From an uncultured Chloroflexia bacterium (lineage in GTDB: Bacteria; Chloroflexota; UBA5177): a DNA stretch of 64,000 nucleotides. Below, piece by piece: positions 1,271 through 50,804 of this stretch; the stretch's first letter is position 1; each line of letters opens with the position of its first letter. The stretch spans positions 1,758,355 to 1,822,354 of the forward strand of contig CAVTRL010000001.1 in assembly GCA_963737125.1 (NCBI GenBank), written 5' to 3'. A model generated the notes under the pieces. It was not told where the DNA came from and made no database searches. It was given only the letters and a program-made list of their open reading frames with translations. A program made the translations under genes and the position numbers.

Positions 1271-2194
1271 TTAAACAGCCGCCTCTTTATGATGCCTCAT
1301 GGTAGCAGCACCATTCGCGCCGGCGTTTGCGCTCCATACGGGTGAAAATGCCAGCCACTGTTCGGGATAGCGGGCAATGATGCGTTCCATCTGCCGGGCG
1401 AGGACATCGAGGTTCGCAGTGTCGTCGGCGTCCACATCGCCGGTGCGCTGTACGGGGAGAGGTACGATGAGGCCGTCGAAGGCACCCGGACTCTTTCGTA
1501 TGCCAACGGCCAGGACCAAGGGAGAGCCGAGCCGCCTGGCCAGCGCAACCGGGCCAACCGGTAAAGCCGCGACGTGGCCAAAGAGCTCGACGGGTTCCGT
1601 TCGGCCGGAAATATGGCGGTCTCCCGCGACGCCCACGATCTCGCCGGCCTTGAGAGCACGGATCATCTCGCGCGGCGCCCGTTCGAGCGGCACGATGTTG
1701 ATGCCGTGGGCGGCGCGTTCCTTGACGAGGAACTCAAAGAGCTGAGGCGGGCTCATCCGCTCGACCGGGACGGTGAGCCGGTAGCCGCGGGATGCAAGCA
1801 CCTGGCCGACCAGGTCGTGGTTTCCCAGATGCAGTGTGATCATGATCAGACCGTGCCCGGCCGACATCGCCGCGTCAACCGCTGACCAATCGGGCACATG
1901 TACCATGCGTTCGATCTCATCAATAGACAATGAGCCGATGCGCAGAGTATCGACCCAGTTCATGGCGTCGTGTTGGAACGTCCTGCGGGCGAGTCGGCGG
2001 ACGCGTTTCGAACCGGCCGGCTCGGACAGCACAATCGACAGATTCGAGGTGACGCCCGCCCGGGCGCGCGGCACGACGAAGTATGCGGCCCAGCCCGCAA
2101 CACGGGCCATCCGGTAGACGAGCGGAGCCGGTACCATGGCGAGGGTGCGACTCGCCAGGCGGAGGGCGACGTACAGGGCAACGTTCGGGGACAC
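1271..2194 (-). CDS. HtrB/LpxL-family lipid acyltransferase (paralog 2)
   Basis: 307-aa track ORF; overall resemblance to lysophospholipid/lipid A acyltransferases; start overlaps the stop of the upstream paralog. Confidence 0.65.
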   Translation of the reverse strand: MSPNVALYVALRLASRTLAMVPAPLVYRMARVAGWAAYFVVPRARAGVTSNLSIVLSEPAGSKRVRRLARRTFQHDAMNWVDTLRIGSLSIDEIERMVHVPDWSAVDAAMSAGHGLIMITLHLGNHDLVGQVLASRGYRLTVPVERMSPPQLFEFLVKERAAHGINIVPLERAPREMIRALKAGEIVGVAGDRHISGRTEPVELFGHVAALPVGPVALARRLGSPLVLAVGIRKSPGAFDGLIVPLPVQRTGDVDADDTANLDVLARQMERIIARYPEQWLAFSPVWSANAGANGAATMRHHKEAAV

Positions 2195-3111
2195 TATGCT
2201 TTCAGGTCCCCGCTCGTCTTCAAGGATGCGGCACCGGTGCGGGCATGGTCACGTTCCGGCCACATGGGACGAAACATGTACCACTGGTCGGGCCTTTCCC
2301 GAACAACCGTTTGCAGAGTGTCCATGAGCTTCTGCATGATGCCGGCGACGTCGGCGTCCCGATTGCCGGACTCGGCGCAGGGCACCGGCGGAAACAAGCG
2401 GCACTCGAAGGTTTGATCGGGTTGCCGGAACATGTATACCGGAAGGAGTGTTGCTCCGGTTTTCAAGGCGAGTACTGCCGGTCCGCCGGGGACGGCCGTC
2501 TCCCGTCCAAAAAAGCGAACGGTTACGCCCTCATCAGGAGGGAGTGGCCGGTCAAAGAGCAGGGTGAGTGAGCCGCCGGTGCGGAGCGCTTTCAGCATGC
2601 CGCGCGCGTCGTTCACGCCAATCAGGTGGATCCCTTTCTGGAGACGCTTGCGCTGAATGAGTCTGTCCAGATAGGCGGGTCGGAAGGTATCGTAGACGGC
2701 GTGTACAGCCGTGAAGTCTTGCAGACGCAGGCCGCCGACCTCAATAGTGCCGAAGTGGGCGCTCGCGATGATGACGCCTTTGCCGCGGGCGACGGCGGCC
2801 AACAAGTGCTCGAGCCCGTGGATTTTCATCGACGCGATGATTTCATCCGACGAGGACATGTTGGGTAGGTCGAGGAACTCGATGAGGTACTTGCAGTAAT
2901 TGCGCATGGACTTGCGCGCGATAGTGCGCACGTGGCCGTCGGAAGCATCACCACCGAGAACCGCCCGGGTATTGGCGAGGAGTATCCTGCGCTTGGCCGG
3001 CCAGGAGAGATACACGCAGTCGCCCACGGCGGTACCAATCAGGTACCGCCATGAACGGGGTATGAATCTCGAAAGAAACGCACTGATCTGAATGACCAGG
3101 TACAGCGCCAT
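2194..3111 (-). CDS. HtrB/LpxL-family lipid acyltransferase (paralog 1)
   Basis: 305-aa track ORF with HtrB-like acyltransferase features (..IIASAHFGTIE.., C-terminal ..RERPDQWYMFRPMW..). Confidence 0.65.
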   Translation of the reverse strand: MALYLVIQISAFLSRFIPRSWRYLIGTAVGDCVYLSWPAKRRILLANTRAVLGGDASDGHVRTIARKSMRNYCKYLIEFLDLPNMSSSDEIIASMKIHGLEHLLAAVARGKGVIIASAHFGTIEVGGLRLQDFTAVHAVYDTFRPAYLDRLIQRKRLQKGIHLIGVNDARGMLKALRTGGSLTLLFDRPLPPDEGVTVRFFGRETAVPGGPAVLALKTGATLLPVYMFRQPDQTFECRLFPPVPCAESGNRDADVAGIMQKLMDTLQTVVRERPDQWYMFRPMWPERDHARTGAASLKTSGDLKA

Positions 3112-3120
3112 GAACGTGTA

Positions 3121-4230
3121 CTAGGAGCTTGCCGTCACGGGGCTGTGCTCTTCAACCAGAGCCGTGGCGCGAATAAACGCTTCCGTCATCTCGCGAGCGA
3201 GCTCGTCCTTATGCTGGACAGGCGGTGATTTCATAAAGTACCCGGACGGCCCCTCGAGGGCGCCGGATATGTTGTGGTCAAGCGCCAGCTTGTTGCAGCG
3301 TATCGCGTCGATGACGACACCGGCGGAATTTGGAGAATCCCAGACTTCGAGCTTCATCTCGACGTTCAACGGAACGTCTCCGAAGGATCGGCCTTCCATC
3401 CGAATGTACGCCCACTTTCGGTCACTGAGCCATTCCACGTAGTCACTTGGTCCAATGTGCACATTGCCCTTGCCGACGTCGTAGTCGAGCTGCGAAGTGA
3501 CGGCGTTTGTTTTGGATATCTTCTTTGACTCGAGGCGGTCGCGCTCCAGCATGTTGAGGAAGTCGGTGTTGCCGCCGACGTTGAGCTGGCTGGTGCGTTC
3601 GACCTTGACTCCACGATCCTTGAAAAGGGTGGTCAAGGCGCGGTGAACGATGGTAGCGCCCACCTGAGATTTGATGTCGTCGCCAATGATCGGCAGTCCT
3701 GCCTGCTCGAAGCGACGGCGCCAGTATTCCTCGCGGGCGATGAAGACCGGGATGCAGTTTACGAATCCACATCCGGCCCGCAGCACCTGCTCGACATACC
3801 ACTTCGTCGCTTCCTCACTGCCGACGGGCAAGTAGCTGACGACTACATCGGTCTTGGTGTCCTTGAGGATTTGAACGACATCGGCGGTCGGACCGGGTGC
3901 TTTGGTGATGATCTCCGAAAGGTACTTGCCCAATCCGTCGTGGGTCATCCCGCGCTCAACCTTGACTCCGAGGCGCGGCACGTCAGAGAACTTGTAGGTG
4001 TTGTTGTGCCCTGAAAAAACCGCTTCCGAGAGGTCTTTGCCAACCTTTTCAGCGTCAATGTCGAAGGCGCAGCTGAACTCGATGTCCCGAATGTGATAGC
4101 CGCCCAAATTGACGTGCATGAGCCCTGGAACGAAATCGTCGTCCTTGGCGTCCTTGTAGTACTGCACGCCCTGCACAAGGGATGAGGCGCAATTTCCTAC
4201 CCCGATAATTCCAACTCGAACCTTCGACAC
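3121..4230 (-). CDS. ino1: myo-inositol-1-phosphate synthase
   Basis: 369 aa; N-terminal NAD-binding [21 protein letters not shown] and overall similarity to bacterial/archaeal MIPS. Confidence 0.85.
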
Positions 4231-6530: not shown

Positions 6531-7052
6531 ATGACCGATGACGAAGGGTTCTCCGGGCTCTCGCACGTGGGCGCCGACGGCAAGGCGCACATGGTCGACG
6601 TGGCGGCGAAACCGAGCAGCACACGAATCGCCGAGGCCGAGGGATATGTTTGCATGCTGCCGGCGACGCTCGACCGCGTGCGAAGCAACAGCGCCGAGAA
6701 GGGTGATGTACTGGGAGTGGCGCGTATTGCCGGAATCCTGGCCGCGAAGAAGACCTCGGAGCTCATCCCGCTCTGTCACGGACTGGCGCTGGACCATGTG
6801 GGGGTGGAATTCGAGCTCGACGAGCCGGGGTCACGGGTGCGGGTGAGCGCGAGGGCGATCACCCGAGGGCCGACGGGTGTGGAAATGGAAGCTCTGACCG
6901 CCGTGGCGGTGGCCTCCCTGACGGTGTACGACATGTTGAAGGCGGTCGATCGCGGCATGACGATTGACGGTGTACGACTGACTCTCAAGTCGGGCGGACG
7001 GTCAGGGACGTACCACGCAGGTGAAGCGGCTACGCCAGATCGTACTCTCTGA
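6531..7052 (+). CDS. moaC: cyclic pyranopterin monophosphate synthase accessory protein MoaC
   Basis: 173 aa; ..[22 protein letters not shown].. and ..[16 protein letters not shown].. are MoaC hallmarks. Confidence 0.85.
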
Positions 7053-8409
7053 TCTTGGCCTGCAACATCGTGCGCTGGATGCCGAGCTGTTTCGCGGCCT
7101 GGCCACGGTTGCCATCCGCCTGGTCCAGAGCGGCTTCGATCGCTTGACGCTCGACCTCGGCCACTATCTCTTTGAGTTTGACGCCGGCGGCAACCTTGTC
7201 TTGCACGCCGTCCGATGAAAGGTTGCCGTTTTTACCCGGGGCACCGGTGAACACGACGTGCTGGGGCGTGATGACCGACTCCCTGGCGAGGATTATGGCC
7301 CGATGGGTGGAGTTCTCCAGTTCCCGTACGTTGCCCGGCCAGTTGTAGGTCATGAGTTTGTCGAGTGCTTCCTCGGAAATGCGAGGGTTGTTGTTCGGGG
7401 CGTCATTCCGGTATTTCTGCAGGAAATGCTCGACCAGCAGCGGTACGTCGTCCATTCGATCGCGGAGCGGCGGGAGCTCGAGCGCGATCACGTTGAGACG
7501 GTAGTACAAATCCTCGCGAAAGCGACCTTCCGACACTTCCTTGGCAAGATTCCGGTTGGTGGCGGCGACGACACGGGTGTTTACCTTGATCGGCGTATTG
7601 CTTCCGACGCGCTCGAATTCGCGTTCCTGTAGAACGCGAAGTAACTTCTTCTGGGTGTTGAGCGACATTTCGCCAATTTCGTCGAGAAAAATCGTGCCAC
7701 CGTCGGCCATCTCGAAGCGACCCTTCCGGGTCTTCACGGCGCTGGTGAAACTGCCGGCCTCGTGACCGAAAAGCTCGCTCTCAAGTAGAGTCTCGGTCAG
7801 TGACGCGCACGGCACTTTGACGTAGGGTCCATTGCGCCGGTTGGAATTGAAGTGTAGAGCCCCCGCCACGAGCTCCTTTCCGGTGCCACTCTCGCCCGTT
7901 ATCAAGATGGTGGCCTCGGTGCGGGCCACCTGCCCGATGGTTTTGTAGACCTGCTGCATGGGCATTGTGTTGCCGATGATGTTGTCCAGGGGGTCGCGAA
8001 TGGTTTCATCGACGGCGCGGACCCGCCGAGCGAGATTGCGGTGGTCGAGGGTTCGGCGGACGGTGATAAGCAAGTCATCCAATTCGAATGGTTTGGTGAC
8101 GTAGTCGTAGGCGCCGCGCTGAATGGCCTCGATGGCGACGTTCGATGTGCCGTAGGCGGTCATCGTGAGGACCGGTACATCGTCGATATGCATTTTTTTC
8201 ATCTGGTCCAGCACATCAAGACCGCTCATACCCGGCATCCGGACGTCCATAATAAGGACATCGGGCCGGTGCTTGGTGAGGGCCGGAATGACGTCACGAC
8301 CGGACTTGGCCTCAATGGTATTGAAACCTTCGCTTTCCAGGAAGCTTTGAAGCAGGCCCCGGATCGATTGATCGTCGTCCGCGACAAGAATTAACGCCTT
8401 TTCGTCCAT
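7030..8409 (-). CDS. sigma-54-dependent Fis-family response regulator (NtrC-like)
   Basis: Receiver domain ([20 protein letters not shown]..), AAA+ sigma-54 activator core (..[19 protein letters not shown].., ..GAFTGA-like region), C-terminal Fis HTH. Track ORF extends to 8553; start at MDEK (8409) preferred. Confidence 0.8.
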
Positions 8410-8578
8410 TGACCCCTCGCACCCCCGCACACACCGCGCTGTTGCCGACGTCCGCCGCCAACCAACCGATTGTACAGTGCAAAGGGGCCGTTCGGGACGT
8501 CCGGCGGAGCCGGCGGGCAAGCGATCGACGGCCCGCACGTGTACTGGAGGCAACGATCAGGTCGAAGGCGCGTAAAGA

Positions 8579-10453
8579 ATGAAAGTGATCGGAACGGCGG
8601 GCCACATAGACCACGGCAAGTCCACGCTCGTTCGACGGCTCACGGGGATCGATCCGGATCGGCTGGACGAGGAGAAGCGGCGCGGCATGACGATCGACCT
8701 TGGCTTCGCTTGGCTCACGCTGCCGTCCGGGGTGGAGGCGAGCATCGTGGACGTCCCGGGACACGAGCGATTCGTGAAAACCATGGTGGCGGGCGCGGGT
8801 GGAGTGGATGTCGCACTGCTGGTGGTGGCGGCCGACGAGGGGATCATGCCGCAAACCAGGGAGCATCTGGACATTCTCGATGTACTGGGCGTCCGATATG
8901 GGGTAGTGGCGCTGACGAAGTGCGATCTGGTGGACGAGGAGTGGCGCGAGCTGGTGGCCGAAGAGGTACGCGAGGAACTTGTGGGCTCCTCACTGGAGGG
9001 CAGCTCCGTGGTTCCGGTGAGCGCCCAGTCGGGGGAAGGTCTGGACCGCTTGCTGCAGGCACTTGATTCCGCGCTCGCGGCGAGCCCGGCGCCGCGCGAT
9101 CGTGGACGACCGTACCTGCCTATTGACCGCGCGTTTTCAGTCGCGGGCTTCGGCACGGTGGCAACCGGTACGTTGCACGACGGCACGGTAACCGAAGGCA
9201 TGGAACTGACGCTGCTGCCGGCGGGCCGGCGGGTGAAAGTGAGGGGCCTGCAAACGCATCGCAAGCAGGTGGATGAGGCGACCGCGGGCGCGCGCGTGGC
9301 CGTCAATCTTTACGGGCTCAACGCGTCGGACCTGCAGCGAGGAGATGTGCTGGCGGCACCCGGCGCAGTCGCGGTCACGCAGCGAGCGGACGTATGGCTG
9401 AGGGTCGCTCGGTCGGCGCCGCACGCTTTGCGTCACGGAATGACCGTGATGGCCCACGTCGGCGCGGCGGAAGGCGCGACAACGCTCGCCCTCTTCGAGC
9501 GAGCCGAACTGCCGCCCGGGGAATCGGGCTGGGGACAACTCCGGTTTGAGACTCCACAGGCAATAACCCGTGATGAGCCATTCGTACTCCGACTACCGGC
9601 CCCGGCGCGCACGGTGGGCGGGGGCATTATCACCGACACGGCGCCACGTCACCGCAGATCCGACAGGTCGGCACTGAAGCGGTTGAGTGACCTCATGTCG
9701 CCGAACCAGCACGACCGCGTGCGAGCGGCGGTGACTGCCGCGTCACCACTTTCCATCGAGTCGATCGAGTTGAGGGCCGGCCTGACCCGGGCCGAGACGT
9801 CCTCGGCACTGCAGGAGCTGACGACGGATGGAAGTGTGGTCAGGGTGGGCCAGCGATACCTCTCGAAGGAAGGGTGGGACCGGCTGGAGCGTGAGGTGGA
9901 AGAGGCTCTGAGCGGGTACCACGCGCGGCATCCACTGGCGCTAGGCATGGCGCGTGAGGAGCTCAGAACGAGGGTTGGCTGGAGATTCGCCGGCTGGGCG
10001 GACGTGTTGGAGTGCCTGGCGGACCGGGGGATTGTGCGGGTGAGCGGCGCGCGTGTCGCGGCCAGTGGCCACGGCGGCGGTACCGGTAGCCGCCGCGCCG
10101 AGGCGGACGCCGTCAAGGAGCTGCTGACTGCAACGCCGTACGCGCCGCCCGGTGCGACGGTCTTGATGGCGGAAACGGGGGCGGACGCGGCGTTGTTGCA
10201 GGCGATGGTCGAGGAAGGCGAAATCGTGCGAGTGGACACGGGGCTGTATTTCGAGCGTGCGGCGCTCGACACTGTGAAAAGAACAGCCGTCGAGGCGATA
10301 CGTGCCGAGGGCTCGCTGACGGTGTCTACGCTGCGCGACAGACTGGGCACGTCGCGCAAGTACGCGCTCTCGCTCCTGGAGTTTCTCGATAGCGAACGAG
10401 TGACACGCCGGATCGGAGACGAGCGCGTGCTCGGTGTGCAGGCGGCGGAATGA
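8579..10453 (+). CDS. selB: selenocysteine-specific translation elongation factor SelB
   Basis: 624 aa; N-terminal GTPase [18 protein letters not shown] plus long C-terminal winged-helix-type extension typical of SelB rather than EF-Tu. Confidence 0.8.
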
Positions 10454-11583
10454 AAGTAGGCATAGCAGCCTATTTGCTGCACTCCGGCGCCGATTATCGC
10501 GCAGCCGGGGTAAGCCTCTATACGTATCAGCTGCTCCGATACTTGCCAGGAGCCGCGAACGACAGCGAATTTCTAGCTTTTTGCGGAAAGGACGCCCCGC
10601 CGGTGGAAAAGGTCCATTCGGTAGTCACGGCCGTGCCGACGGTCCATCCGGTCCTCAGAATCGCGTGGGAGCAAACCGGTTTTCCCTGGTCGGCCGGTCG
10701 GCACGACGTGGATCTGGTGCACGGCACGGTGAACGTGGTGCCGCTCCTTGCGCGGATTCCATCGGTCGTCACCGTGCATGACCTGTCGTTCTTGCGGCTG
10801 CCGGGCATGTTTCCCGCCGCGAAGTCGAGGTATCTGAAATTGGCCGTCGCGCAATCTGTGCGGCGGGCGACGCACGTTATCGCAGTTTCAGCCGGCACGA
10901 GGGCGGATGTGGTAGAGCTGCTCGGCATACCAGAAGGCAAAGTGACGGTGGTCCATTCTGGCGTGTCACCGGCATTTCGACCGCTGGCAGCGGCCACAAT
11001 CGAGCGATTTCGAGTCTCGCACTTTGGCGGCCGCCCGTACATCTTGCACGTGGGAACACTTCAGCCGCGTAAGAACATCGACGTCCTGATCCGGGCATAT
11101 GCAGGCCTCCGGCGCGAGCTGCAACTTCCGCACATGCTGGTCCTGGTCGGTGCGCGAGGATGGATGTTTGAAGATCTGTTCGATCTGGTCCGATCTGAGG
11201 GCCTGTCCGAGCACGTTTTCTTTGCCGGATACGTACGCTGGGAGGATTTACCACTCTGGTATAATTCCTCCGACCTGTTCGCCTACCCGTCGGCCTACGA
11301 AGGCTTCGGATTTCCCTTACTCGAGGCGATGGCGTGTGGAGTGCCGGTCGTCGCCTCTTCCGTTCCGACTTCGGTCGAGGTGGTTGGTGATGCAGGTCTA
11401 ACCGTTTCGCCCGGATCCCAGGAGGCTCTCCAAATGGCACTGACGCGCGTCCTGGAAGATTCGACGCTGCGCGCCGAATTGGTTGAGCGAGGTTTGGCGA
11501 GAGCCGCAACGTTTACCTGGGAACGTACGGCCGCCGAGACGGTCGCCGTGTATGAACGCGTCCGCAGGGAAACCGCACGTTGA
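10450..11583 (+). CDS. GT4-family glycosyltransferase
   Basis: 377 aa; C-terminal ..YPSAYEGFGFPLLEAMACGVPVVASS.. GT4 motif. Confidence 0.7.
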   Translation: MKVGIAAYLLHSGADYRAAGVSLYTYQLLRYLPGAANDSEFLAFCGKDAPPVEKVHSVVTAVPTVHPVLRIAWEQTGFPWSAGRHDVDLVHGTVNVVPLLARIPSVVTVHDLSFLRLPGMFPAAKSRYLKLAVAQSVRRATHVIAVSAGTRADVVELLGIPEGKVTVVHSGVSPAFRPLAAATIERFRVSHFGGRPYILHVGTLQPRKNIDVLIRAYAGLRRELQLPHMLVLVGARGWMFEDLFDLVRSEGLSEHVFFAGYVRWEDLPLWYNSSDLFAYPSAYEGFGFPLLEAMACGVPVVASSVPTSVEVVGDAGLTVSPGSQEALQMALTRVLEDSTLRAELVERGLARAATFTWERTAAETVAVYERVRRETAR

Positions 11584-13043
11584 TTGAATGGAGCCCGCGC
11601 GTCAGCGCCGGACGAGAGGCACGTTCCACCTCGTTTCAGCGACTCGTGCCGGTGACCACGGCGGCCCTCGATCTGGTCCTGATCTACGGCGCTTTCATTC
11701 TGGCTTACTGGCTTCGGTACACGCTGCGGTTGGGGCCGACAATACAACAGCACATCAGTTTCTGGCGGTATCAGCCGCCTGCGCTTTTGCTCGCGGCCGT
11801 AATGATGGTGGTGCTAATCGCGAAAGACTCGTACCGGCGGCGCATGGGCGGGGACATAGTGGGAGAGGCGATCAACGTTTTCAGCGCCTCTACCATTTCG
11901 GTGGCGACGATTGTGGTGATCAACGCGATGCTGCATCAGTGGGAATATTCACGTGCGGTCATCCTGTACGTATGGGTACTGGCGATCGCTCTGGTGATCA
12001 CGGGGCGCGCTCTGCACCGAAGTATGCAGACGATGCTTTACCGAAAAGGACGCGGTGTGCGACGACTGCTGGTGGTCGGGGCTACCGACGTTGGAAAGAT
12101 GATCATGCAAAGCGTGATGAACCGGCCGGACTTCGGTTATCAGCTCGTGGGGTTCGTAGAGCATCGATCATCGCCGACCGTAAAAAACTTCGGCCGCTTT
12201 CGGGCGCTCGGCACGGTGGTAGACGTGCCGTCGATCGTGGAAAGCGCCGGGATCGATGAGGTGATAATCGCGCTTCCGGCTTCGGCACACGAGGATATGT
12301 GGCCCATTCTCAGTAGCTGCGAACGCCTCGGGGTCGGAGTGAAGCTCGTGCCCGACCTGTTCGAAATGGGCCTTGGTAGGGTTCAGATGGACGACATCTC
12401 GGGTATCCCATTGATCGACGTGCAGGAGCGCCCGCTGAGAAATGTCGCGCGAGTAGCGAAGAGATTCACGGATGTGGCGTTGGGATCGATCCTCTTGATC
12501 GCGACGACGCCGGTGGTGTTACTGCTGGCGCTATTGATCCGTCTGGAGTCGGCCGGGCCGGGCTTTCTTCGACAAGAGCGGATCGGCGTGGGTGGCCGCC
12601 GCTTTCTGTGCCTGAAGCTACGGACCATGCGGGTGGATGCAAACGATGTGACGGCGTCGCTACAAGCGATGAATGAAAGCGATGGGCCGCTCTTTAAGAT
12701 TCGGAATGATCCGCGGTGCACGGTGCTGGGAAAGAGAATCCGGCGACTGAGCCTTGACGAGCTGCCGCAGTTGTGGAACGTGGTGAAGGGCGAGATGAGC
12801 CTGGTAGGCCCGCGTCCAGCACTTCCGCACGAAGTTGAGCAGTACGATCTACGTCAAATGCGACGTCTGGAAGTGAAGCCAGGCATCACCGGGATATGGC
12901 AGGTGAGCGGACGGAGCGATCTGTCTTTTGACGAGATGGTGATGATGGATATCCACTACGTGGAAAATTGGTCGATTGGCCTGGACATTGCGATTTTGCT
13001 GCGAACCGTGGTCGCGGTCGTTGCCAGACACGGGGCGTATTGA
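11580..13043 (+). CDS. polyprenyl-phosphate sugar phosphotransferase (WbaP/exopolysaccharide 'sugar transferase' family)
   Basis: 487 aa; C-terminal ..LSLDELPQLWNVVKGEMSLVGPRPALPHEV..KPGITGIWQVSGRSD.. bacterial sugar transferase domain preceded by TM segments. Confidence 0.75.
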   Translation: MIEWSPRVSAGREARSTSFQRLVPVTTAALDLVLIYGAFILAYWLRYTLRLGPTIQQHISFWRYQPPALLLAAVMMVVLIAKDSYRRRMGGDIVGEAINVFSASTISVATIVVINAMLHQWEYSRAVILYVWVLAIALVITGRALHRSMQTMLYRKGRGVRRLLVVGATDVGKMIMQSVMNRPDFGYQLVGFVEHRSSPTVKNFGRFRALGTVVDVPSIVESAGIDEVIIALPASAHEDMWPILSSCERLGVGVKLVPDLFEMGLGRVQMDDISGIPLIDVQERPLRNVARVAKRFTDVALGSILLIATTPVVLLLALLIRLESAGPGFLRQERIGVGGRRFLCLKLRTMRVDANDVTASLQAMNESDGPLFKIRNDPRCTVLGKRIRRLSLDELPQLWNVVKGEMSLVGPRPALPHEVEQYDLRQMRRLEVKPGITGIWQVSGRSDLSFDEMVMMDIHYVENWSIGLDIAILLRTVVAVVARHGAY

Positions 13044-13046
13044 CCG

Positions 13047-13742
13047 ATGGAGTGGGCCGCGTACGGGGGCCTGATTCGCCGCCGCTGGCTGATTCTGGCG
13101 GTCATCGTGGCCCTGGACCTGATCGCGGCCGGTGCGAGCTACGCCCGCAGCCGGCACGCGGCGGGCTACCAGGCGTGCGGCACGCTGTACCTCGCGGATG
13201 TTTCCGCTCCGAGCCTCATCGCCGCTCCTCCCACGTCGTTGGAGGCGGCCGGCGAACTCCTGGCAGGGGAAACTGCCGCCAATTTTTTCGGCGACGATAT
13301 TCTTGACGTGGCGTCGTCGCGATCGGTCGCCAGTTTTATTTCGGCTCATCTCTCCGGTCAGGTCTCAAGCTCGACAAGTGACATCTACGGGCAGGTGACG
13401 GGATCGCGGCGCGATCGAACGGTCTCGCTGTGCGTAAACAACGCGAACAGCGCCACGGCACTGGCCGCGGACCGGGTGCTGACCCAGGCGATGTCGGCCG
13501 ACCGCGCGCGATTTGTGGGGAAGAATATGGCCGGCCGTACGTTTGTTTCGGTCGTGTCGCCGGCGTCGGTAGCGACTGTTCCGGCGTCGTCCTCCCGTTT
13601 GCGACTGGCGCTGGAATTCGTGCTCGGCCTCCTGATCGCGGGCGGTGTCGCGTTGCTGTGGGATGCATTCGATGCGAACGTTCGGGACGAGCATGACGTG
13701 GAACGCATACTGGGCGTACGGGTGACGAGGCTGAGCCGATGA
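13047..13742 (+). CDS. Wzz/polysaccharide co-polymerase-like membrane protein
   Basis: 231 aa with N- and C-terminal TM helices flanking a periplasmic region; position after the sugar transferase. Confidence 0.4.
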   Translation: MEWAAYGGLIRRRWLILAVIVALDLIAAGASYARSRHAAGYQACGTLYLADVSAPSLIAAPPTSLEAAGELLAGETAANFFGDDILDVASSRSVASFISAHLSGQVSSSTSDIYGQVTGSRRDRTVSLCVNNANSATALAADRVLTQAMSADRARFVGKNMAGRTFVSVVSPASVATVPASSSRLRLALEFVLGLLIAGGVALLWDAFDANVRDEHDVERILGVRVTRLSR

Positions 13743-14218
13743 CGCTCGGTTCGCTCGCTATGCTCATCGCCGAATTGCAGATCACGATGGAGGCGATGCA
13801 ATCGTTGTTGGTGACGAGCCCGCTGGCCGATACACGCGTGCGCGGTATCGCGTCGGAAATTTCGGACAGTTTGCGCGGGCGAGAGATACCCGTACGTCTT
13901 CTCCTGTTAGATCCGGGTGGCCACCTGGTACCGCCGGGCGATACCACCGCGACGCCGGCGGGAGAGAACCACGCACCACCGGACATACGTACGCCGGCAG
14001 CGGCGCGGGGCTATTTGAACGCTCCCGGCATACTGACGGTGACCGGGTCCCCGGCGGTGCTGGAAGATCCGACGACGCTTATCCTGGCAGCAGCGGCCGA
14101 CGCGGTGGCACTGGTGGTGGAACAGGGAAAAACGTCGCGGAGGAGCTTGCAGGCGGCCAGGCAGGAGCTACACGCGGTCGGGGCGCACCTGGTCGCGGCT
14201 GTGCTCTACGGGAATTGA
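13739..14218 (+). CDS. BY-kinase (CapB/Wzc ATPase)-like domain protein with degenerate P-loop
   Basis: 159 aa; ..ILTVTGSPAVLEDPTTLILAAAADAVALVVEQGKTS.. resembles the C-terminal half of tyrosine-kinase ATPase domains, but no GxxxxGK[ST] Walker A is present. Confidence 0.35.
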   Translation: MTLGSLAMLIAELQITMEAMQSLLVTSPLADTRVRGIASEISDSLRGREIPVRLLLLDPGGHLVPPGDTTATPAGENHAPPDIRTPAAARGYLNAPGILTVTGSPAVLEDPTTLILAAAADAVALVVEQGKTSRRSLQAARQELHAVGAHLVAAVLYGN

Positions 14219-23737: not shown

Positions 23738-26567
23738 ATGATGGTGGACGGGCACGCGCTGGTTCATCGTGCGTTTCACGCGTTGCCGGAAGACCTCGCG
23801 ACTTCGGCCGGCGAACCGACCAATGCGGTGTTGGGCTTCACCAACATCGTTCTGAAAGTGATGGCCGAGAAGCGGCCGTCGCACATCCTGATGGCCATGG
23901 ATCGGCCGGTGCCCACCTTCCGGCACGAGCGGTTTGCCGATTACAAGGCGACCCGGCCGCCGATGCCCAGGATCCTGGCGGGACAGTTTGCAAGAGTGCG
24001 GGAGGTCGCGGACGCGCTCGGTATTCGCATTTTCGAGCTCGACGGGTACGAAGCCGACGATGTCCTGGGCACGCTGGCCGGAGAAGCCGAACGAGAGGGA
24101 ATCGACACACTGATCGTTACCGGCGATCTTGACGCGCTGCAGCTGGTGTCGGACCGGGTTCACGTGCTGACGCCGGGGCGAGGCGTGGCGGAGACTACCG
24201 AGTATGACGTGGACGCGGTGCGGAATCGGTATGGCATCGAGCCGGGCCAGCTTCCGGATTGGAAGGCGCTGGTTGGGGACACTTCCGACAACATTCCGGG
24301 CGTCCGCGGAATTGGCAACAAGGGCGCGACAAAACTGGTCGCCGAGTTCGGTTCGCTGGAAGGCATATTTGCGCACCTCGACGAACTGCCGGCGCGCATG
24401 AAGCAGCTGCTGGAGGACGCCGCGGACCAGGCGTACGAAAGCCGCGAGCTGGCGACTATACTCCGGAACGCGCCGATCGAGCTGCCCGTCGAGGACACCC
24501 GGAATACGGGCGGCGACCGCGCGAAACTGGTAGAGCTATTTCGCGATCTGGAGTTCTACAGCCTGATCGAGCGCATTCAGAGCGCTCTGCCACGGGCGGC
24601 CAGTGAGCCGGCATGGAAAAAGCACGACACGGGCCCGGAACAGCTTGCCATGTTCGAGATCGAAACCCTGGAGACGCCGGGGACGGCGAACGGCGGCGGC
24701 TTTGGTTCGGTCCCGGCGCCAGTACTGCCGCCAGCAGCCGATTTGGGATCGCACGTGCGGACCACGGTGGTACGTTCAGAGGAGGAGCTGCGAGCGCTGG
24801 TGCGGGATCTGTCCAACGCCGACATCTTCGCATTTGATACCGAGACGACGTCCACCGATCCGATGCGTGCCCGGTTGGTCGGGCTCTCGTTTTCCACGGA
24901 GCGGCGGGCCGGTTGGTACGTTCCGGTCAATCACGCCGAGGGCCAGCAGCTCGAAATCGAAGTGGTGCTCAAAGCGCTGCGACCGCTGCTGGCGGATCCA
25001 GGCAAGGGCGAAAGTCGGGCACAACCTGAAGTACGACTATGCCGTGATGGCGAACTACGGGATTCGCCTGGCCGGGCTGGAGTTCGACACCATGGTGGCC
25101 GCGTACCTGGTGGAGCAGACCGGCCGAAATCTTTCGCTGGACGCTCTGGCCCTGAAATACGCGCACGTCGAAATGGTGCCGATCAGCGCGTTGATCGGGA
25201 AAGGCAAGTCGCAGATCACGATGGACCGCGTCGATATTGACGTGGCGGGTGAGTATGCGGCGGAGGATGCTGCCCTCACACTTGAGCTGAAGGGTCTACT
25301 GGAGCCGGAGCTCGCCAAAATGGAGCTGACCGAGCTATTCCACACGGTGGAAATGCCGCTGGTGCGCGTGCTGGCCGAGATGGAGCTTGTGGGAGTGAAG
25401 CTCGATACCCAGGTGCTGGCGCAAATGTCGGTTGAAATGAGCGACATTATCGGCCGACTGGAGGCCAACATCTACGAACTGGCGGGTGGCCGATTCAACA
25501 TCAACTCCACCCAGCAACTGGGACAGCTGCTGTTCGTGCAACTCAAGCTGCCGTCCGGCCGCCGCACAAAAACCGGGTTCTCGACGGACAATGAAGTGCT
25601 CGAGGGGCTGCGCGGCAAGCATCCAATCGTCGACGAATTACTGCAGTACCGGCAACTCGTAAAGCTGCGGAGCACGTACATCGACGCGCTGCCGGTGCTG
25701 ATCAATCCGGAAACTGGACGGGTGCATACGGACTATAACCAGTGCTCGACCTCGACCGGACGGCTGAGCTCATCGAGTCCCAATTTGCAGAACATTCCAA
25801 TTCGAGGAGACATCGGCCGGAAAATCCGCCGCGCTTTCATTCCACTGGAGAAGGACCACGTGCTGCTGACCGCGGATTATTCGCAGATCGAGCTGCGCGT
25901 GCTGGCGTCGATGTCGCACGACCCGAAATTGGTGGAAGCGTTCCGCTCCGGATTGGACGTGCATCGCGCGACCGCGTCGGCGGTGTTTGGCGTCGACCTG
26001 GATGCCGTTACGCCCGACCAACGCCGGATCGCGAAAATCGTGAACTTCGGGATTATCTACGGCATCGGCGAGAACCGGCTGGCACACGAGACCGGGATTT
26101 CACGGGCTGAAGCCGCCGAGTTCATAGCGAACTACAATCGCACCTATGCCGGGGTCAAGGCCTTCATGGATGACATGCGCCGGCGTGCGGTGCTGTACCA
26201 GTATGTTTCCACGCTGCTGAACCGACGCCGGTACCTACCCGATATACACTCGTCCAATCCCGGCATTCGCACCGCGGCCGAGCGGGCGGCGATCAACATG
26301 CCGATCCAGGGCACTGCCGCAGACATCATCAAACTGGCCATGATCCGGCTGCAGAATGAGATCAGGGACCGGTTTCCGGACACCCACATGGTGCTGCAGG
26401 TGCACGACGAACTCGTGTTTGACGTTCCGCTGAGCCGCTTAACCGAGCTGGCGCGACTCGTGCAGGACGTCATGGAGCACGCGCTGCCGCTTGACGTTCC
26501 ACTGGAGATCGACATGAAGGTGGGAGACGACTGGTACGACATGGCGCCGCTGGAACGGGTGAGCTAG
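23738..26567 (+). CDS. polA: DNA polymerase I (single apparent frameshift near 25006)
   Basis: 5'-nuclease, 3'-5' exo-like and polymerase domains across track ORFs 23738..25240 and 24603..26567; frames switch at a GGG run (25006-25008) between ..LLADPGK and AKVGHNLKYD... Confidence 0.85.
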
Positions 26568-28439: not shown

Positions 28440-28516
28440 GGCGCATTCGTCTAGCGGCCTAGGACACCGCCCTCTCAAGGCGGAGACCACGGGTTCGAAT
28501 CCCGTATGCGCTACCA
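28440..28516 (+). tRNA. tRNA-Glu (anticodon CUC)
   Basis: Hand-folded 77-nt cloverleaf: acceptor GGCGCAT/ATGCGCT, D-arm GTCT..GGAC, anticodon stem CCGCC/GGCGG with loop CTCTCAA, T-arm ACGGG-TTCGAAT-CCCGT, encoded CCA. Confidence 0.8.
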
Positions 28517-29494: not shown

Positions 29495-30482
29495 ATGGAA
29501 CCACGTGTTCTGGTGTATGTAGAGCAAGAGGATGGCGTGCCGAAGCGTACCGCGCTGGAAGCAGGGAGCAAGGCCGCGGAGCTTGCCGGGAATGGTGATG
29601 GAACCGTAACCGGTGTGGTGCTGGGAGTGGGAGCGGCACGATGCGTCGATGTGCTTCGCCGCCACGGATTCGATGAGATTCTGGTGTGCGAGGATGCCGC
29701 ATTCGGCGATTTTTTGGTCGATCCGCACGTGGAGATCGTGGCCCAGGTGATCGGCAATCGCCGGCCTCGGCGCCGTACTATTTCCCGATACCGGCCACAG
29801 CCGCGATATCGCCGCACGGGTCGCGGCCCGGGTGGGGGCAAGTCTGGTATCCGGTGTGGTCGATCTGACCTGGCGAGACGGTGCATGTTGAGGCGCAGGA
29901 GACGATTTTCGGGGGGAACTACGTCACGACGGTTGAAACTCGAAACGCCACAACCGGTGTGTTTTTGGTTCGGCCGAATGCGTTCGAGGCGCGCGAGACG
30001 CCGCGTGAGGGCGCCATTAGCAACCTAGAGTACGCGAGGGGCGAGCCCACGCAACGTGTCCGAATCGAGAAGGTGGTGGAGGAGCAGGGCGCCCCGATAC
30101 CGCTGGAGGAAGCCGCGATCATCGTGTCCGGCGGCCGGGGGCTGGGCGGACCGGAGCCGTTTCGCGCTCTTGCAGGAGCTTGCCGACGCGCTGGGAGGAG
30201 TGGTGGGAGCTTCTCGCGCGGCGGTCGACGCGGGGTGGATACCGTACTCGCATCAGGTTGGACAGACGGGACGGACGGTCAAGCCGTCGCTCTACATTGC
30301 CGATGGGGATATCCGGAGCGGTGCAGCACCGGGTGGGGATGCAGACCGCAGAGACGATAATCGCAATCAACAAGGACCCGGGTGCGCCGATTTTCACGTT
30401 GTCCGATCTGGCAGTAGTCGGCGACCTCTTTCAAATCGTCCCCGCTTTGACGGCGGAGATCAAGCGTCGGAAGGGAGCCTGA
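29495..30482 (+). CDS. etfA: electron transfer flavoprotein alpha subunit (at least 4 frameshifts)
   Basis: Conserved EtfA segments lie in different frames (29495.., [32 protein letters not shown] in a second frame, 29881.., 30056.., 30180..30482 ending ..[29 protein letters not shown]..). Confidence 0.75.
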
Positions 30483-30484
30483 CC

Positions 30485-31634
30485 CTGAATTTCGACCTTT
30501 CCGACGAACAAATCATGGTGCGAGATCTGGCCCGCGACTTCGCCACGAACGAGATGGCACCGAAGGCGGAGCATTACGACCGGGAGCACTCCGTTTCCGT
30601 ACGACGTGATCCAGGGATTGGCGGAACTCGGTTTCCTGGGGCTCCCTGTACCGGAAGAGTACGGTGGGGCGGGTGCCGACACGCTGACCTACGCGCTGGC
30701 CGTTGAGGAGCTCTCACGCGGTGACGCTTCAGTGGGCATCACGGTAGCAGCTCATACGTCGCTTGGCACCATGCCGTTTCTGCTATTCGGCTCTGAGGAG
30801 CAGAAACACGAATTCGTGCCTCCGCTAGCGCGCGGTGAGTCGCTCTGGTCATTCGGCCTGACGGAGCCCAACGCGGGGTCAGATGCCGGTGCGACGCGCA
30901 CGCAAGCGACGCTGACCGATGGTTCCTGGCGTGTGAACGGGGTGAAATCGTTCATCACGAATTCCGGCACGACCATGAGCGGGGGAGTAACTATCACCGC
31001 CGTTACCGGAACGTTGCCAGACGGTAAGGCGGAGATATCCAATTTGATCGTGCCGAGGGGCACACCCGGGTACTCGATTGCCAAAGACTACGACAAGATG
31101 GGCTGGCGGGCCTCCGACACTCACGAACTGGCGTTCAACGACGCGCAAGTGCCGGAGAACCGGCTGCTCGGCCCACGCGGTGAGGGGTTTCACCAGTTTC
31201 TAACGATTCTCGACGGCGGCCGGATTTCGGTGGCGGCGCTGAGCGTAGGGCTGGCGCAGGCGTGTTATGATGCCTCGTTCAAATACGCGCGCGAGCGGAG
31301 CCAGTTCGGGCGGGCAATCTCGAAATTCCAGGCGATCCAGTTTCGGCTGGCCGATATGGCGACGGAGATCGAGATGGCCCGCTTGATGACGTATAAGGCT
31401 GCCTGGCTGAAGGATGCCGGAAAGGACTTCCGGATGGCTGCCGGCATGGCAAAGCTCTACGCGACGGAAGTGGCGACACGCGCCGCGAACCACGCAGTGC
31501 AGATCCATGGTGGCTACGGAATCATGGAGGAGTTTCCGGTGGCTCGATACTGGCGGGACGTCAAGATCGGTGAAATCGGGGAAGGCACCTCCGAGATCCA
31601 GCGGACGGTTATCGCCCGACTGCTGGGCGCGTAA
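30485..31634 (+). CDS. acyl-CoA dehydrogenase (frameshift near 30600; start approximate)
   Basis: N-terminus ..[36 protein letters not shown].. in one frame, continuing as track ORF 30606..31634 (..[32 protein letters not shown]..). Confidence 0.75.
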
Positions 31635-31714
31635 TACAGTGGGAGTAGACGTCGCGCGTCGACTCGAACGTGCGCCCGCACCGCAGGCACCAGACCTTTC
31701 TAGAAAATAGCGTC

Positions 31715-32901
31715 ATGGAAGAAGTAGTTATTGTCTCGACGGCCCGCACGCCGTTCGGAAAGATGGGCGGCGCTCTCAGCCCATTGAGCGCGATCGATCT
31801 GGGCTCGTGCGTCGATTCGATCCGCGCTGGAACGGGCGCAGGTGCCGTTCGACGAGGTCGACGCAGGTAATCATGGGAACGGTCATCACGGCCGGTCTGG
31901 GTCAGATCCCGGCGCGGCAGGCGGCACTGAAAGCCGGGCTGCCCAAAGAGGTTTCGGCCCTGACGGTCAACAAGGTATGCGCGTCCAGTCTGAAGGCGGT
32001 CAATCTGGCCGCCCAGATGATCCGGGCCGGGGACGCCGACGTGGTGGTGGCGGGAGGCATGGAGAGCATGAGCAATGCTCCGTACCTCTTGCCCGGCGCA
32101 CGTTTCGGATACCGGATGGGCGACGGCGAGCTGGTCGACGCGATGATGCGCGACGGTCTCAACTGTCCTACCGGGTGCGTCCCCATGCACGAGTACGGAA
32201 GCGACGTGGCCGCGGAATTCGAGATCAGCCGGGAGGACCAGGATCGATGGTCGCTGCGCAGCCAGCAGCGGTACGCCGCAGCGCTGGACGCCGGGAAGTT
32301 TTCGGACGAAATCGTGCCAATCTCGGTACCGCAGCGAAAGGGACCGGCACTGCTGGTGGATCGGGACGAACAGCCCCGCCCGGACACGACCTTCGAAGGA
32401 TTGCAGAAGCTCAAGCCGCTCAAGCCGGGGGGCAGTGTGACGGCGGGAAACGCTCCCGGCGTCAACGACGGCGCGGCCGCGCTGGTGGTTATGTCGGGCC
32501 GGAAAGCGGCGGCGCTCGGCGTCACGCCGCTGGCCATTCACCTGGCGCAGGGCGAGGCAAACGACGAGAACCGCTATCTGCATACCGTGCCGGCGGATGC
32601 CATCCTTCGCGCTTTGAAACGGGCGAAGATCGACCTGGATCAGATCGGCCTATTCGAAATAAATGAGGCGTTCGCGGCGGTGACGCTGCGTAGCATGCAA
32701 ATGCTCTCGCTGGACGGCGAGAACGTCAACGTGAACGGCGGAGCAGTGGCGATCGGACATCCGATCGGCGCGTCGGGCGCGCGCATTCTGGGGGCATTGA
32801 TCCTCGAGATGGGCCGCCGCGGCGTGGAGTACGGCGCGGCAGGCATCTGCAGCGGCATGGCGCAGGGTGAGGCGACCGTGGTACGCCTCCCCTTCAGGTA
32901 A
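31715..32901 (+). CDS. acetyl-CoA C-acetyltransferase (thiolase); two frameshifts near 31800-31860
   Basis: MEEVVIVSTARTPFGK.. start; conserved ..VNKVCASSLKAV.. and C-terminal ..NVNGGAVAIGHPIGASGARIL..; N-terminal 45 aa in a different frame from the rest. Confidence 0.8.
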
Positions 32902-32940
32902 AGCGTCCGGGTGGTGTCTTGAGCGGAGCCGAAGCGTATC

Positions 32941-34087
32941 GTGGATATTGAGCTGACCCAGGACGAGACCGACATTCTCGACGTAGTACGGTCGTTCGCA
33001 CGCGAAGAAGTGCTGCCACGCGCAGCGGCGATCGACCGGGACGGTGAGTATCCGGTCGATCTGGTGCGTGCCATGGGGGAACTGGGACTGATGGGCGTGC
33101 CGTTTCCGGAAGAGTACGGCGGCGCAGACCAAAGGTATTTAATGTTTGCGCTGATCGTCGAAGAGCTATGCCGGGCGTGCGCCAGTACCGGCCTGATCAT
33201 GGACGTCAATATCTCGCTGTGCGGCGAGCCCATCTGGCTATTCGGCACCGAAGACCAGAAGCAGAAGTATCTGGGACGGCTGGCGCGCGGAGAGGCGCTG
33301 GGCGCACTGGCGATGACCGAACCGGAGGCAGGCTCGGACGCAGCGTCGATTCGGACGACAGCGGTGAAGGATGGCGATTGCTACGTCCTGAACGGCCGAA
33401 AGATCTTCATCACGAACGGTGAGGTCGCGGACATGTACATCGTGACGGCGGTGACCGACCCCGAGAAGGGAACGCACGGGATCACAGACTTCATCGTCGA
33501 AAAGGCATGGCCGGGTGTCTCATTCACGACTCACTACGAGAAGATGGGCATCCGCGGCGCACCGACCACGGACGTGGTGCTGGAGAACGTCGAGGTGCCG
33601 GTCGAGAACGTGCTGGGCGGCGAGGGAAACGGATTCAAAGTCACGATGGACACGCTCGACGCGGGGCGGATCGGCATCGCGGCGCAGGCGGTCGGTATTG
33701 CGCGCGCGGCGCTGGAGGACGCGACGGAGTACGTCAAGACCCGGCGGCAGTTTGGAAAGTCGATCTGCCGAATTCCAGGGCATGCAGTTCATGCTGGCCG
33801 ACATGGCGACAGCAATTCACGGCGCCAGGCTTTTAACCTTACGGGCGGCCGGTCTGCGCGACGCGAATATCCCGTGCGCGCGGGAATCTTCGATGGCGAA
33901 ACTGTTTGCAGGCGACACGGCGATGAACGTGACGACTGAGGCGGTCCAACTTTTCGGCGGGTACGGCTACATGCAGGAGTATCCAGTGGAGCGCCATATG
34001 CGAGACGCGAAAATCACGCAGATTTACGAGGGTACGCAACAGATCCAGCGAGTGGTGATTGCCCGCCAGGTGTTGAACGCCCGATGA
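32941..34087 (+). CDS. acyl-CoA dehydrogenase (frameshift near 33770)
   Basis: Track ORFs 32941..33939 and 33515..34087 together give a full ACAD (..[32 protein letters not shown]..). Confidence 0.75.
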
Positions 34088-35229
34088 ACTTCACTCTGAC
34101 CGACGATCAGGAAGCTATCCGCGACGCGGTACGCGACTTCGCACAGGGTGAAGTGGCGCCTCGCGCGGCGCAAATCGACCGCGACAATGTCTTTCCGCGC
34201 GATCTGGTGGAGGCGGCGGCGGGGCTCGATCTGCTGGGCATCGTCGTGCCGGAGCAGTACGGCGGGACCGGGCTGGACCATGTCTGCTTCGCGCTCTTCG
34301 TGGAGGAGATCGCGGCCGTCTCGGGCACGCTGGCCGTGATTCTCGACGTGCACACGTCGGTGGGTACCGAACCAATCATTGCTTTCGGAAGTGACGAACA
34401 AAAGCAGCGGTATCTTCCCCGACTGGCGCGCGGGGAGTATCTCGCGGCATTCGCGCTTTCCGAGCCTGAGTCTGGATCGGACGCCGCCAGCCTGACGTCC
34501 AGCGCCACTCTGGTCGACGGCTGTTATCGCTTGAACGGAACGAAGACGTTTATCACCAATGTCGGCGAGGCCGGACTCTACATCGTGATGGCACGCACCG
34601 GCGAGCCGGGAGCTCGCGGCATCTCGGCGTTCATCGTGGAGGCGGACACGCCCGGACTGTCGTTCGGGGCGCCGATGCACAAAATGGGCCTGCGAGGGTC
34701 GTCCACCGGCGAATTAGTGCTGCACAACGTCGAGGTGCCGGTGTCGAACCTGCTGGGCGACGAGGGACAGGGTTTCCGGGTGGCGATGAAGGCTCTGGAC
34801 AGCGGGCGGATCGGGATCAGCGCCCAGGCGGTCGGCCTGGCGCGAGGGGCGCTGGACCTGGCATCGTCGTACGCCACAGGAACGCCAACAGTTCGGCCAG
34901 CCGATTGCGCGCTTTGAGGGCATCCAGTTCATGCTGGCAGACATGGCAACCGCCATCGACGCGTCGCGGCTGATGACGTGGGAGGCAGCGGCACGCTGCG
35001 ACGCGGGGAAGCCCGTTTACGTCGTCGGCGTGCCATGGCAAAGCTGATGTCGACTGATACGGCGATGAAGGTTACGACCGACGCGGTGCAAATCCTGGGC
35101 GGATACGGCTATATCAAAGAGTTTCCGGCCGAGCGGTTCATGCGCGATGCGAAGGCGACCCAGATCTACGAGGGTACCAATCAGATCCAGCGTATCGTCA
35201 TCGCGCGCGACCTGCTGCGCGGTGGATGA
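34084..35229 (+). CDS. acyl-CoA dehydrogenase (frameshifts near 34880 and 35030)
   Basis: Track ORFs 34084..34917 and 34978..35229 plus an intervening third-frame segment (..[16 protein letters not shown]..). Confidence 0.75.
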
Positions 35230-35236
35230 CCCCGGT

Positions 35237-37863: not shown

Positions 37864-37904
37864 GCTGCCACGGTGGGCCGCTGGCAAAGTAGGAGTGTGA
37901 AGTC

Positions 37905-38324
37905 GTGGCGGAAGGAAAGATTCGCGTCCTGATGGCAAAAGCGGGGCTGGACGGACACGACCGCGGGGTAAAAGTCGTGTCCCGCGCGCTGCGAGACGCC
38001 GGCATCGAAGTTATTTACACGGGTCTCCATCAGACTCCGGAGGGTGTGGTAAGCGCAGCAGTGCAGGAAGACGTGGACGCAATCGGATTGAGCCTGCTGT
38101 CCGGGGCGCACATGACCCTATTTCCGCGAATTCTGAGCCTCCTGCGAGAAGAGGATGCGGGCGATATCCTGGTGTTCGGCGGAGGAACGATTCCTCAGGG
38201 TGACGTGGCGAGTCTAAAGGCGATGGGCGTGGCGGAGGTCTTCACGCCCGGTGCCTCGACAGTCGATATCGTGGAGTGGGTCCGGACGAACGTGACGAAG
38301 AAGAGCCTGAGCGGGCAGACCTGA
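37905..38324 (+). CDS. acyl-CoA mutase small subunit (B12-binding domain)
   Basis: 139 aa; ..[15 protein letters not shown].. cobalamin-binding DxHxxG motif. Confidence 0.85.
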
Positions 38325-38705: not shown

Positions 38706-38793
38706 TGGTGCGCCCGACTGGACTCGAACCAGCACTCCCTTAACGGGAACTAGGCCCTCAACCTAGCGCGTCTACCTGTTCCGCCACGGGCGC
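38706..38793 (-). tRNA. tRNA-Leu (anticodon GAG)
   Basis: Reverse complement folds as a class II tRNA: acceptor GCGCCCG/CGGGCGC, anticodon stem CTAGG/CCTAG with loop TTGAGGG, long variable arm (tcccgttaaggga), T-loop TTCGAGT, encoded CCA. Confidence 0.8.

Positions 38794-50727: not shown

Positions 50728-50804
<77 letters not shown>

Follow-up and report, generated by a model that had tools for sequence, protein, structure and literature searches.

The closest described counterparts of the locus reported here are the selenocysteine (Sec)-specific elongation factors SelB of E. coli (ribosome-bound structures 5lzb, 5lzc and 5lzd) and A. aeolicus (4zu9). In both proteins, EF-Tu-like domains I-III come first and winged helices make up the C-terminal part. 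The selA and selB genes of E. coli are organized as an operon (PMC1273633). Homologous SelB proteins are also encoded in selA-selB clusters of Firmicutes, Proteobacteria, NC10/Methylomirabilota and Rokubacteria, where selA immediately precedes selB, a tRNA-Sec gene is found within a few kb and selD occurs in some cases. One of these clusters (L043) additionally has a UGA-containing fdhA. Other arrangements have been described for paralogues of this factor: selB* copies are located downstream of selC* genes for tRNA-Cys(UCA) in some Deltaproteobacteria, and SelB-like proteins occur in Sec-less archaea (PMC5389517, PMC3037878). In a survey of more than 5200 genomes, Peng et al. found "a perfect consistency" of SelB with the Sec trait (PMC5029168).

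We analysed a stretch of 64 kb of DNA from an uncultured Chloroflexota lineage (the whole stretch is hereafter called the window) that encodes a SelB of the same length class (624 versus 614 aa) and domain order. Unlike in E. coli, this selB gene is not part of a selAB operon. It shows 35-44% identity on the protein level to the SelB of the clusters named above, but it lacks all of their partner genes, and its surroundings are without a UGA-containing fdhA. Like selB* of Syntrophobacterales and Desulfobacterales (Mukai et al., PMC5389517) it is not adjacent to selA. However, an (8/4) tRNA gene directly precedes selB*, whereas neither positions 8410-8578 upstream of the window selB nor its wider surroundings contain a tRNA or tRNA-like element, and in contrast to these paralogues the window protein passes the canonical TIGR00475 model. 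The greatest resemblance was found to SelB proteins of uncultured Chloroflexota MAGs (P0002-P0120, e.g. GCA_003530725.1 DPEV01000477.1), which are 48-60% identical over the full length and agree with the window in Pfam architecture, in the flanking gene block and in having no sel partner within ±10 kb.

Identity and conservation of SelB

The product of the 624-aa ORF scored 315.4 bits with the NCBIfam selB equivalog model TIGR00475 (cutoff 242.25), while all other translational-GTPase models, with EF-1-alpha, EF-Tu and aIF-2 gamma as the next best, remained far under their own cutoffs. The Pfam domains GTP_EFTU, GTP_EFTU_D2, Beta-barrel_SelB, SelB-wing_2 and SelB-wing_3 were all recognized (Table 1), and the call of the beta-barrel domain was also made in SelB relatives. 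Residues 3-618 could be aligned to E. coli SelB (E = 1.6e-66, 228 bits). Despite this full-length alignment overall similarity is low, with poor conservation at about residues 360-570, that is the linker and the middle winged-helix region. A Viterbi-style frame tracker detected no internal frame switch in the gene. Judged by its profile score, domain content and alignment, the ORF is a canonical bacterial SelB, and the intact gene called in the initial annotation was thereby confirmed.

Table 1. Positions of selB, its domains and other features discussed in the text (numbering of the window).
Feature	Position	Strand	Basis or remark
MoaC, molybdenum cofactor biosynthesis, two genes upstream of selB	6531-7052	+	PF01967, E = 7e-53
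NtrC-type sigma-54-dependent response regulator, divergent from selB	7030-8409	-	Pfam Response_reg, Sigma54_activat and HTH_8
Putative selB promoter and 5' UTR, divergent intergenic region, 169 bp	8410-8578		Sequence
selB coding sequence, 624 aa, ATG to TGA stop	8579-10453	+	ORF, TIGR00475, Pfam domain set
SelB domain I, GTPase, residues 4-166	8588-9076	+	PF00009, E = 1.4e-36
SelB domain II, residues 192-259	9152-9355	+	PF03144, E = 8e-15
SelB domain III, beta-barrel, residues 275-356	9401-9646	+	PF25461, 24.5 bits, slightly under the 27-bit cutoff
SelB winged helix, SelB-wing_2, residues 442-493	9902-10057	+	PF09106, E = 2e-11
SelB C-terminal winged helix, SelB-wing_3, residues 573-618, predicted SECIS-RNA binding	10295-10432	+	PF09107, E = 6e-19
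GT4 glycosyltransferase downstream of selB	10450-11583	+	Pfam Glycos_transf_1 / Glyco_transf_4
Bac_transf sugar transferase, in operon-like string with selB and GT4	11580-13043	+	Pfam profile matched to position 178 of 179
tRNA-Glu(CTC)	28440-28516		ARAGORN, Rfam
TGA mimicking an in-frame UGA in ACAD3	34915-34917	+	Out of frame, between two compensating frameshifts
tRNA-Leu(GAG)	38706-38793	-	ARAGORN, Rfam
tRNA-Pro(CGG)	50728-50804		ARAGORN, Rfam
TGA within urocanase (hutU)	60177-60179	-	Coding-like flanks; about 11 frame switches scramble the gene

Alignment with the E. coli and A. aeolicus proteins showed that all GTPase motifs are intact (G1 GHIDHGKST, G2 RGMTID, G3 DVPGHE, G4 TKCD, G5 SAQ). 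Directly upstream of domain II are D183 and R184 (in IDRAF), and inside this domain is R239 (in AGARVAVN). These three residues align to D180, R181 and R236 of E. coli SelB, which we take to be the residues lining the selenocysteinyl (aminoacyl) pocket in published SelB structures. At the C-terminus, the motif RDRLG..RK.A..LLE.LD....T.R.G aligns to WH4 of both E. coli and A. aeolicus SelB. In an alignment of 18 sequences of relatives with 48-60% identity, motifs G1-G5 and the D/R/R residues were invariant, as were the winged-helix positions G578, V582, R586, D587, R593, D604, T609, R611, G613 and R616. The invariance of predicted tRNA-binding and SECIS-binding residues at this level of identity argues for purifying selection on both ends of the protein.

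The closest other SelB was only 60% identical and the window SelB formed a singleton cluster. All named relatives were MAGs designated "Chloroflexota bacterium" or "Chloroflexi bacterium", and the best match among GTDB species representatives showed 47% identity. The window SelB adds a rather divergent new protein to a very well-known family, and its gene is arranged as is usual in the phylum.

Genomic context of selB

In the window, selB is preceded by annotated genes for two PF03279 acyltransferases, inositol-1-phosphate synthase, an ArsR-type HTH protein, a phosphodiesterase, MoaC and a sigma-54-dependent response regulator. It is followed by genes for GT4, Bac_transf, CoaBC, DUF1385, RF1, PrmC, Sua5, ValRS, a rhomboid protease and PolA. 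A conserved block around selB, consisting of Lip_A_acyltrans (twice), Ino1, HTH, phosphodiesterase, MoaC and the sigma-54 regulator upstream and of GT4, Bac_transf, CoaBC, L31, DUF1385, RF1, PrmC, Sua5 and ValRS downstream, was kept in four independent relatives with SelB identities of 58%, 57%, 53% and 48%. The position of MoaC two genes upstream of selB was retained in relatives, where the sigma-54 regulator (460-503 aa) also neighbours selB. None of selA, selD and selC was found within ±10 kb of selB in the four syntenic relatives, and no tRNA-Sec was detected near selB in close relatives.

The start codon of the GT4 gene overlaps the stop codon of selB (ATGA) at the junction GAATGAAAG, and an abutting or overlapping junction of the two genes was also present at loci L001, L002, L003 and L006 of relatives. 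The ATGA overlap suggests that selB and the glycosyltransferase gene are co-transcribed and translationally coupled. On the other side of selB, the divergent regulator probably starts at the ATG complementary to 8407-8409; its mechanically called ORF extends to 8553. The presence of this regulator motivated a scan for sigma-54 promoters upstream of selB. No match to a -24/-12 element was found in 8410-8578, and the number of matches across the window was at chance level. A search against Rfam also gave no RNA family match in this intergenic region. The location of moaC would be compatible with a molybdopterin-dependent formate dehydrogenase as Sec target, which is a guess by association. A formate dehydrogenase-like operon was seen near selB at locus L004, where neither a Sec-type nor a Cys-type FdhA motif could be matched and the operon genes are themselves split.

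As a baseline for the linkage of sel genes we used 80 named SelB loci in GTDB genomes and six loci of close relatives. Outside of Chloroflexota, 26 of 51 loci had at least one partner gene in the flanks of selB (NC10/Methylomirabilota, Firmicutes, Rokubacteria, Eggerthella and Desulfotomaculia). A tRNA-Sec gene was found at 19 loci, SelA at 14 and SelD at four, in each case in other phyla only. Not one partner was encoded within ±10 kb at the 29 named loci of Chloroflexota, Dehalococcoidia, Thermomicrobiales or SAR202, nor at any of the six close-relative loci. A selB gene unlinked from selA, selC and selD is the rule in Chloroflexota. Examples of complete chromosomes of the phylum with an isolated selB are OZ244848.1, OZ243944.1 and OZ241866.1. 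Because of this habitual separation, missing neighbours should not be taken as a missing pathway. The implication drawn in the initial annotation, that an intact SelB implies Sec decoding, is retained, whereas the isolation of the gene, which had been highlighted there as noteworthy, turned out to be ordinary for the phylum.

Search for Sec partners and targets in the window

No SelA or SelD was recognized by Pfam among the approximately 60 ORFs of the window or by six-frame tblastn of the window (E ≤ 1e-3) with SelA and SelD seeds that had been verified by Pfam beforehand. ARAGORN and Rfam identified three tRNA genes (Table 1), none of them for tRNA-Sec, as was originally stated. Since Chloroflexi are reported to carry a non-canonical (8/4) tRNA-Sec (PMC5389517), the Rfam scan, run at the gathering threshold, was repeated at E ≤ 5, again with nothing in the window that looks like tRNA-Sec. 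Two annotation-independent scans of every TGA and a scan for the FdhA active-site motif revealed no selenoprotein candidate within the 64 kb. The lack of selA, selD, tRNA-Sec and an obvious selenoprotein noted for the window before any searches had been made was thus borne out by Pfam, tblastn, ARAGORN, Rfam and the TGA scans.

According to Pfam, the approximately 60 ORFs represent ordinary housekeeping and metabolic genes, with no known selenoprotein family among them. Besides the genes flanking selB these encode ETF beta and alpha, three acyl-CoA dehydrogenases (ACAD1 to ACAD3), thiolase, MeaB, methylmalonyl-CoA mutase, a cobalamin adenosyltransferase fragment and a BNR-repeat protein. The remaining annotated genes are those for TsaD, RimI, TsaB, UbiB, membrane proteins, GidB, an MFS transporter, HutU, NuoB and NuoCD.

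Proposed function and alternative explanations

In our view the window very probably encodes a canonical SelB of the Sec pathway, with selA, selD, selC and the selenoprotein targets located elsewhere on the chromosome of about 2.35 Mb. A location of partners and targets elsewhere would be expected because the sel genes of Chloroflexota are dispersed and not organized in an operon. Published surveys, in which SelB and the Sec trait coincide perfectly, point in the same direction. We infer that the partners are most likely present in the genome and that the factor most likely works in Sec insertion. SelA would then produce Sec-tRNA(Sec) from Ser-tRNA(Sec) with selenophosphate supplied by SelD. 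The EF-Tu-like domains I-III of SelB would bind GTP and Sec-tRNA(Sec), and its last winged helix would recognize a SECIS hairpin located just 3' of an in-frame UGA in the selenoprotein mRNA. SelB would finally deliver the Sec-tRNA(Sec) to the ribosomal A site. The gene for this factor lies within a conserved block of housekeeping and cell envelope genes and is probably co-transcribed with the glycosyltransferase gene. This uncultured Chloroflexota lineage can accordingly be marked as a probable user of selenocysteine.

We also searched for SelA proteins of the phylum, using the SelA profile, 50%-identity representatives selected by composition with cluster look-ups, and an Armatimonadota SelA as seed. 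No Chloroflexota-labelled SelA was among the matches listed, which is an uninformative rather than a negative result because these were the best 120-150 or so of thousands per search. A tblastn search of the plasmid collection provided no Chloroflexota SelA seed. Beyond annotation the overall result matters little, and it would be of interest only if selA, selD and selC were absent genome-wide.

Two explanations have to be weighed against a canonical SelB with dispersed partners. According to the first, selA, selC, selD and the selenoproteins have disappeared from the lineage, leaving behind an intact selB that has yet to degrade. Neither a partner nor a target lies within the 64 kb, the SelA matches listed contained none from Chloroflexota, and the small genome could reflect gene loss. 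We nevertheless consider a relic very unlikely. The gene is intact, its functional residues are invariant among relatives at 48-60% identity, and these relatives have it in the same syntenic position. Together these features point to long-term purifying selection and not to a recent leftover. In a documented case of loss, Yersinia pestis CO92, selB itself is frameshifted (PMC1273633), and in surveys SelB was never encountered in a genome lacking the Sec trait (PMC5029168).

According to the second explanation, the protein is a repurposed SelB-like factor that delivers a different aminoacyl-tRNA, as might be the case for selB* or the archaeal SelB-like proteins. Such paralogues do exist (PMC5389517, PMC3037878), and the window selB is found in a non-selenium gene context, coupled to glycosyltransferase genes. 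We regard this as highly improbable, given that the protein scores above the curated TIGR00475 equivalog cutoff and retains both the D/R/R pocket residues and the SECIS-binding winged helix. The conservation of residues at both ends of SelB is difficult to square with a relic and, to a lesser degree, with a repurposed protein. Furthermore, no tRNA or tRNA-like gene is located upstream, unlike in the selC*-selB* arrangement, and homologues with 35-44% identity in other phyla adjoin bona fide selA, selD and tRNA-Sec genes. Extended to the whole clade, the same idea would describe a group of Chloroflexota with a conserved, intact SelB that is encoded at a fixed place on the chromosome, is co-transcribed with cell-envelope glycosyltransferases and persists as an orphan without selA, selC and selD, presumably repurposed. 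We give this very little credence. If true, it would represent the first bacterial "orphan SelB", serving another aminoacyl-tRNA or acting as an RNA-binding GTPase. A canonical SelB with partners elsewhere on the chromosome is preferred over these readings.

Reading-frame breaks in the window

The initial annotation had also raised the possibility that some of the apparent frameshifts in the window are UGA-Sec codons of real selenoproteins. We scored both flanks of every TGA in six frames with a codon log-likelihood model trained on confident genes. Coding-like sequence on both sides was detected at four places (13041, 33937, 34915 and 60177), and all four were rejected as Sec codons. At 13041 the Bac_transf gene terminates normally; its profile is matched almost to the end (Table 1), and the ATG of the next gene follows at 13047, three bases past the TGA and in the same frame. 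The TGA at 33937 is a stop that truncates ACAD2 after a slip out of frame, i.e. an indel artefact, and its frame continues into the ACAD3 gene starting at 34084. The most Sec-like candidate was the TGA at 34915, where read-through would give 277 + 1 + 103 = 381 aa, corresponding to a full-length acyl-CoA dehydrogenase. Here, however, the true frame is shifted by +1 and gives canonical ACAD sequence before the original frame resumes. The TGA is out of frame, between a frameshift at about 34876 and a second one near 35033 that compensates for it. At 60177, conserved blocks of hutU are spread over all three frames, with about eleven changes from one to another.

The frame tracker was run on 40 gene regions. 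It detected no internal switch in any gene between 1 and 23 kb, including SelB and the 902-aa ValRS, one each in polA, ACAD1 and ACAD2, two each in thiolase and ACAD3, two to three in methylmalonyl-CoA mutase, four in ETF-alpha, about nine in nuoCD and about 11 in hutU. In none of the 40 regions did the best-scoring reading path lead through a stop codon. All of the approximately 35 breaks in the window are therefore frame changes caused by indels. To our knowledge, none of PolA, ETF, ACAD, thiolase, MCM, HutU and NuoCD is a known selenoprotein family. Same-frame coding-like sequence around the TGAs at 34915 (+) and 60177 (-) and the ACAD-like read-through product at 34915 would speak for a genuine UGA-Sec codon in an unrecognized selenoprotein, but with the compensating frameshifts at the former, the scrambled hutU at the latter, no best path through a stop and no affected family that is known to us as a selenoprotein family, the chance of this is vanishingly small. 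The suggestion that frameshifts might hide Sec codons is refuted for the breaks examined.

The indels were strongly clustered: the region 1-23 kb had 0 per kb, 29.5-38 kb had about 1.5 and 59-64 kb about 4. We favour a poor assembly consensus over ancient pseudogenes as the origin of these patches, because the peptide blocks between indels are highly conserved and because essential genes (polA, nuo) are affected. As a check for the signature of long-read error we looked for homopolymers near the indels and found no enrichment, in what is a weak test with shift positions good to about ±12 nt. The assembly has patches that are dense with indel frameshifts, and these should not be confused with recoding events. 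A weak Twister-sister match at 38991-39065 (23 bits versus 34, fold z-score 0.39) was dismissed as a chance match; it is located in the lost 5' part of the cobalamin adenosyltransferase gene.

Genomic context of selB

In the window, the stop codon of selB runs into the first bases of a GT4 glycosyltransferase gene; Bac_transf and two conserved proteins of unknown function come next (coordinates in the table). The translation factor is apparently co-transcribed with envelope-polysaccharide genes, in an arrangement kept across the clade. On the other side lies a divergent sigma-54-dependent response regulator, whose mechanically called TTG start is merely 25 nt from selB. Because homologues of this regulator are 460-503 aa long, translation probably begins at the ATG at 8409, which would leave a divergent intergenic region of 169 bp before selB. 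No match to a sigma-54 promoter was found in this region.

Coordinates of features in the window and at selB loci of other genomes
Feature	Location	Position	Strand	Remark
Acyltransferases (two, PF03279) + inositol-1-phosphate synthase	window	1271-4230	-	conserved cluster
Same cluster in relatives	L001/L002/L003/L006	733-5779		
Sigma-54-dependent response regulator	window	7030-8553	-	mechanical ORF, TTG start at 8553
selB stop/GT4 glycosyltransferase start overlap	window	10450-10453		ATGA
Conserved proteins of unknown function	window	13047-13742; 13739-14218		after Bac_transf
Frameshift patches	window	23738-26567; 29495-35232; 36210-38324; 59195-60830 (-); 62639-64000		
NAD-dependent formate-dehydrogenase-like operon	L004	316-5352		NuoE-like, NuoF-like, molybdopterin subunit
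FdhA UGA	L043	5081	+	
tRNA-Sec	L043	16693-16787	+	

Selenocysteine-related genes in other genomes

A more distant Chloroflexota relative (L004; SelB 49% identical to that of the window) encodes a formate-dehydrogenase-like operon about 5 kb from selB on a 1.0-Mb long-read contig. The genes of this operon are also split, with frameshifts the apparent cause, and the motif scan gave no match to a Sec- or Cys-type FdhA motif in it. The selB locus of NC10 bacterium CSP1-5 (L043) served as positive control for the FdhA motif and tRNA scans; it holds an FdhA whose active site contains an in-frame UGA (QARIUHSTTVAGL) as well as a tRNA-Sec near selB.

Among the approximately 390 SelA matches and representatives listed from the protein database none was labelled Chloroflexota, whereas the SelB search returned many matches with this label. 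The SelA searches were seeded with non-Chloroflexota sequences, and the missing label is probably a ranking artefact of these seeds.

Frameshifts and other features of the window

The initial annotation had proposed that some frameshifts could in principle be UGA-Sec codons. We counted approximately 35 indel frameshifts, grouped in patches, with none in the first 23 kb of the window. They break polA, ETF-alpha, three acyl-CoA dehydrogenases, thiolase, methylmalonyl-CoA mutase, hutU (about 11 frameshifts) and nuoCD (about 9). Frameshift sites in the window showed no homopolymer enrichment, and the peptide blocks between them are still highly conserved. The patches look more like local assembly or consensus error than like old pseudogenes.

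A Twister-sister ribozyme match (Rfam) at 38991-39065 (+), which scored below threshold (23.1 bits versus 34, E = 1.7), was rejected as a chance match: its folding showed no advantage over shuffled sequence (z = 0.39), and it falls where the 5' part now missing from a truncated cobalamin adenosyltransferase gene (39091-39435) would lie.

In the relatives, the cluster of acyltransferases and inositol-1-phosphate synthase is extended by genes for a GT4 glycosyltransferase and a CDP-alcohol phosphatidyltransferase. This gene set is reminiscent of a glycolipid pathway of the phosphatidylinositol-mannoside type, in this case in Chloroflexota.
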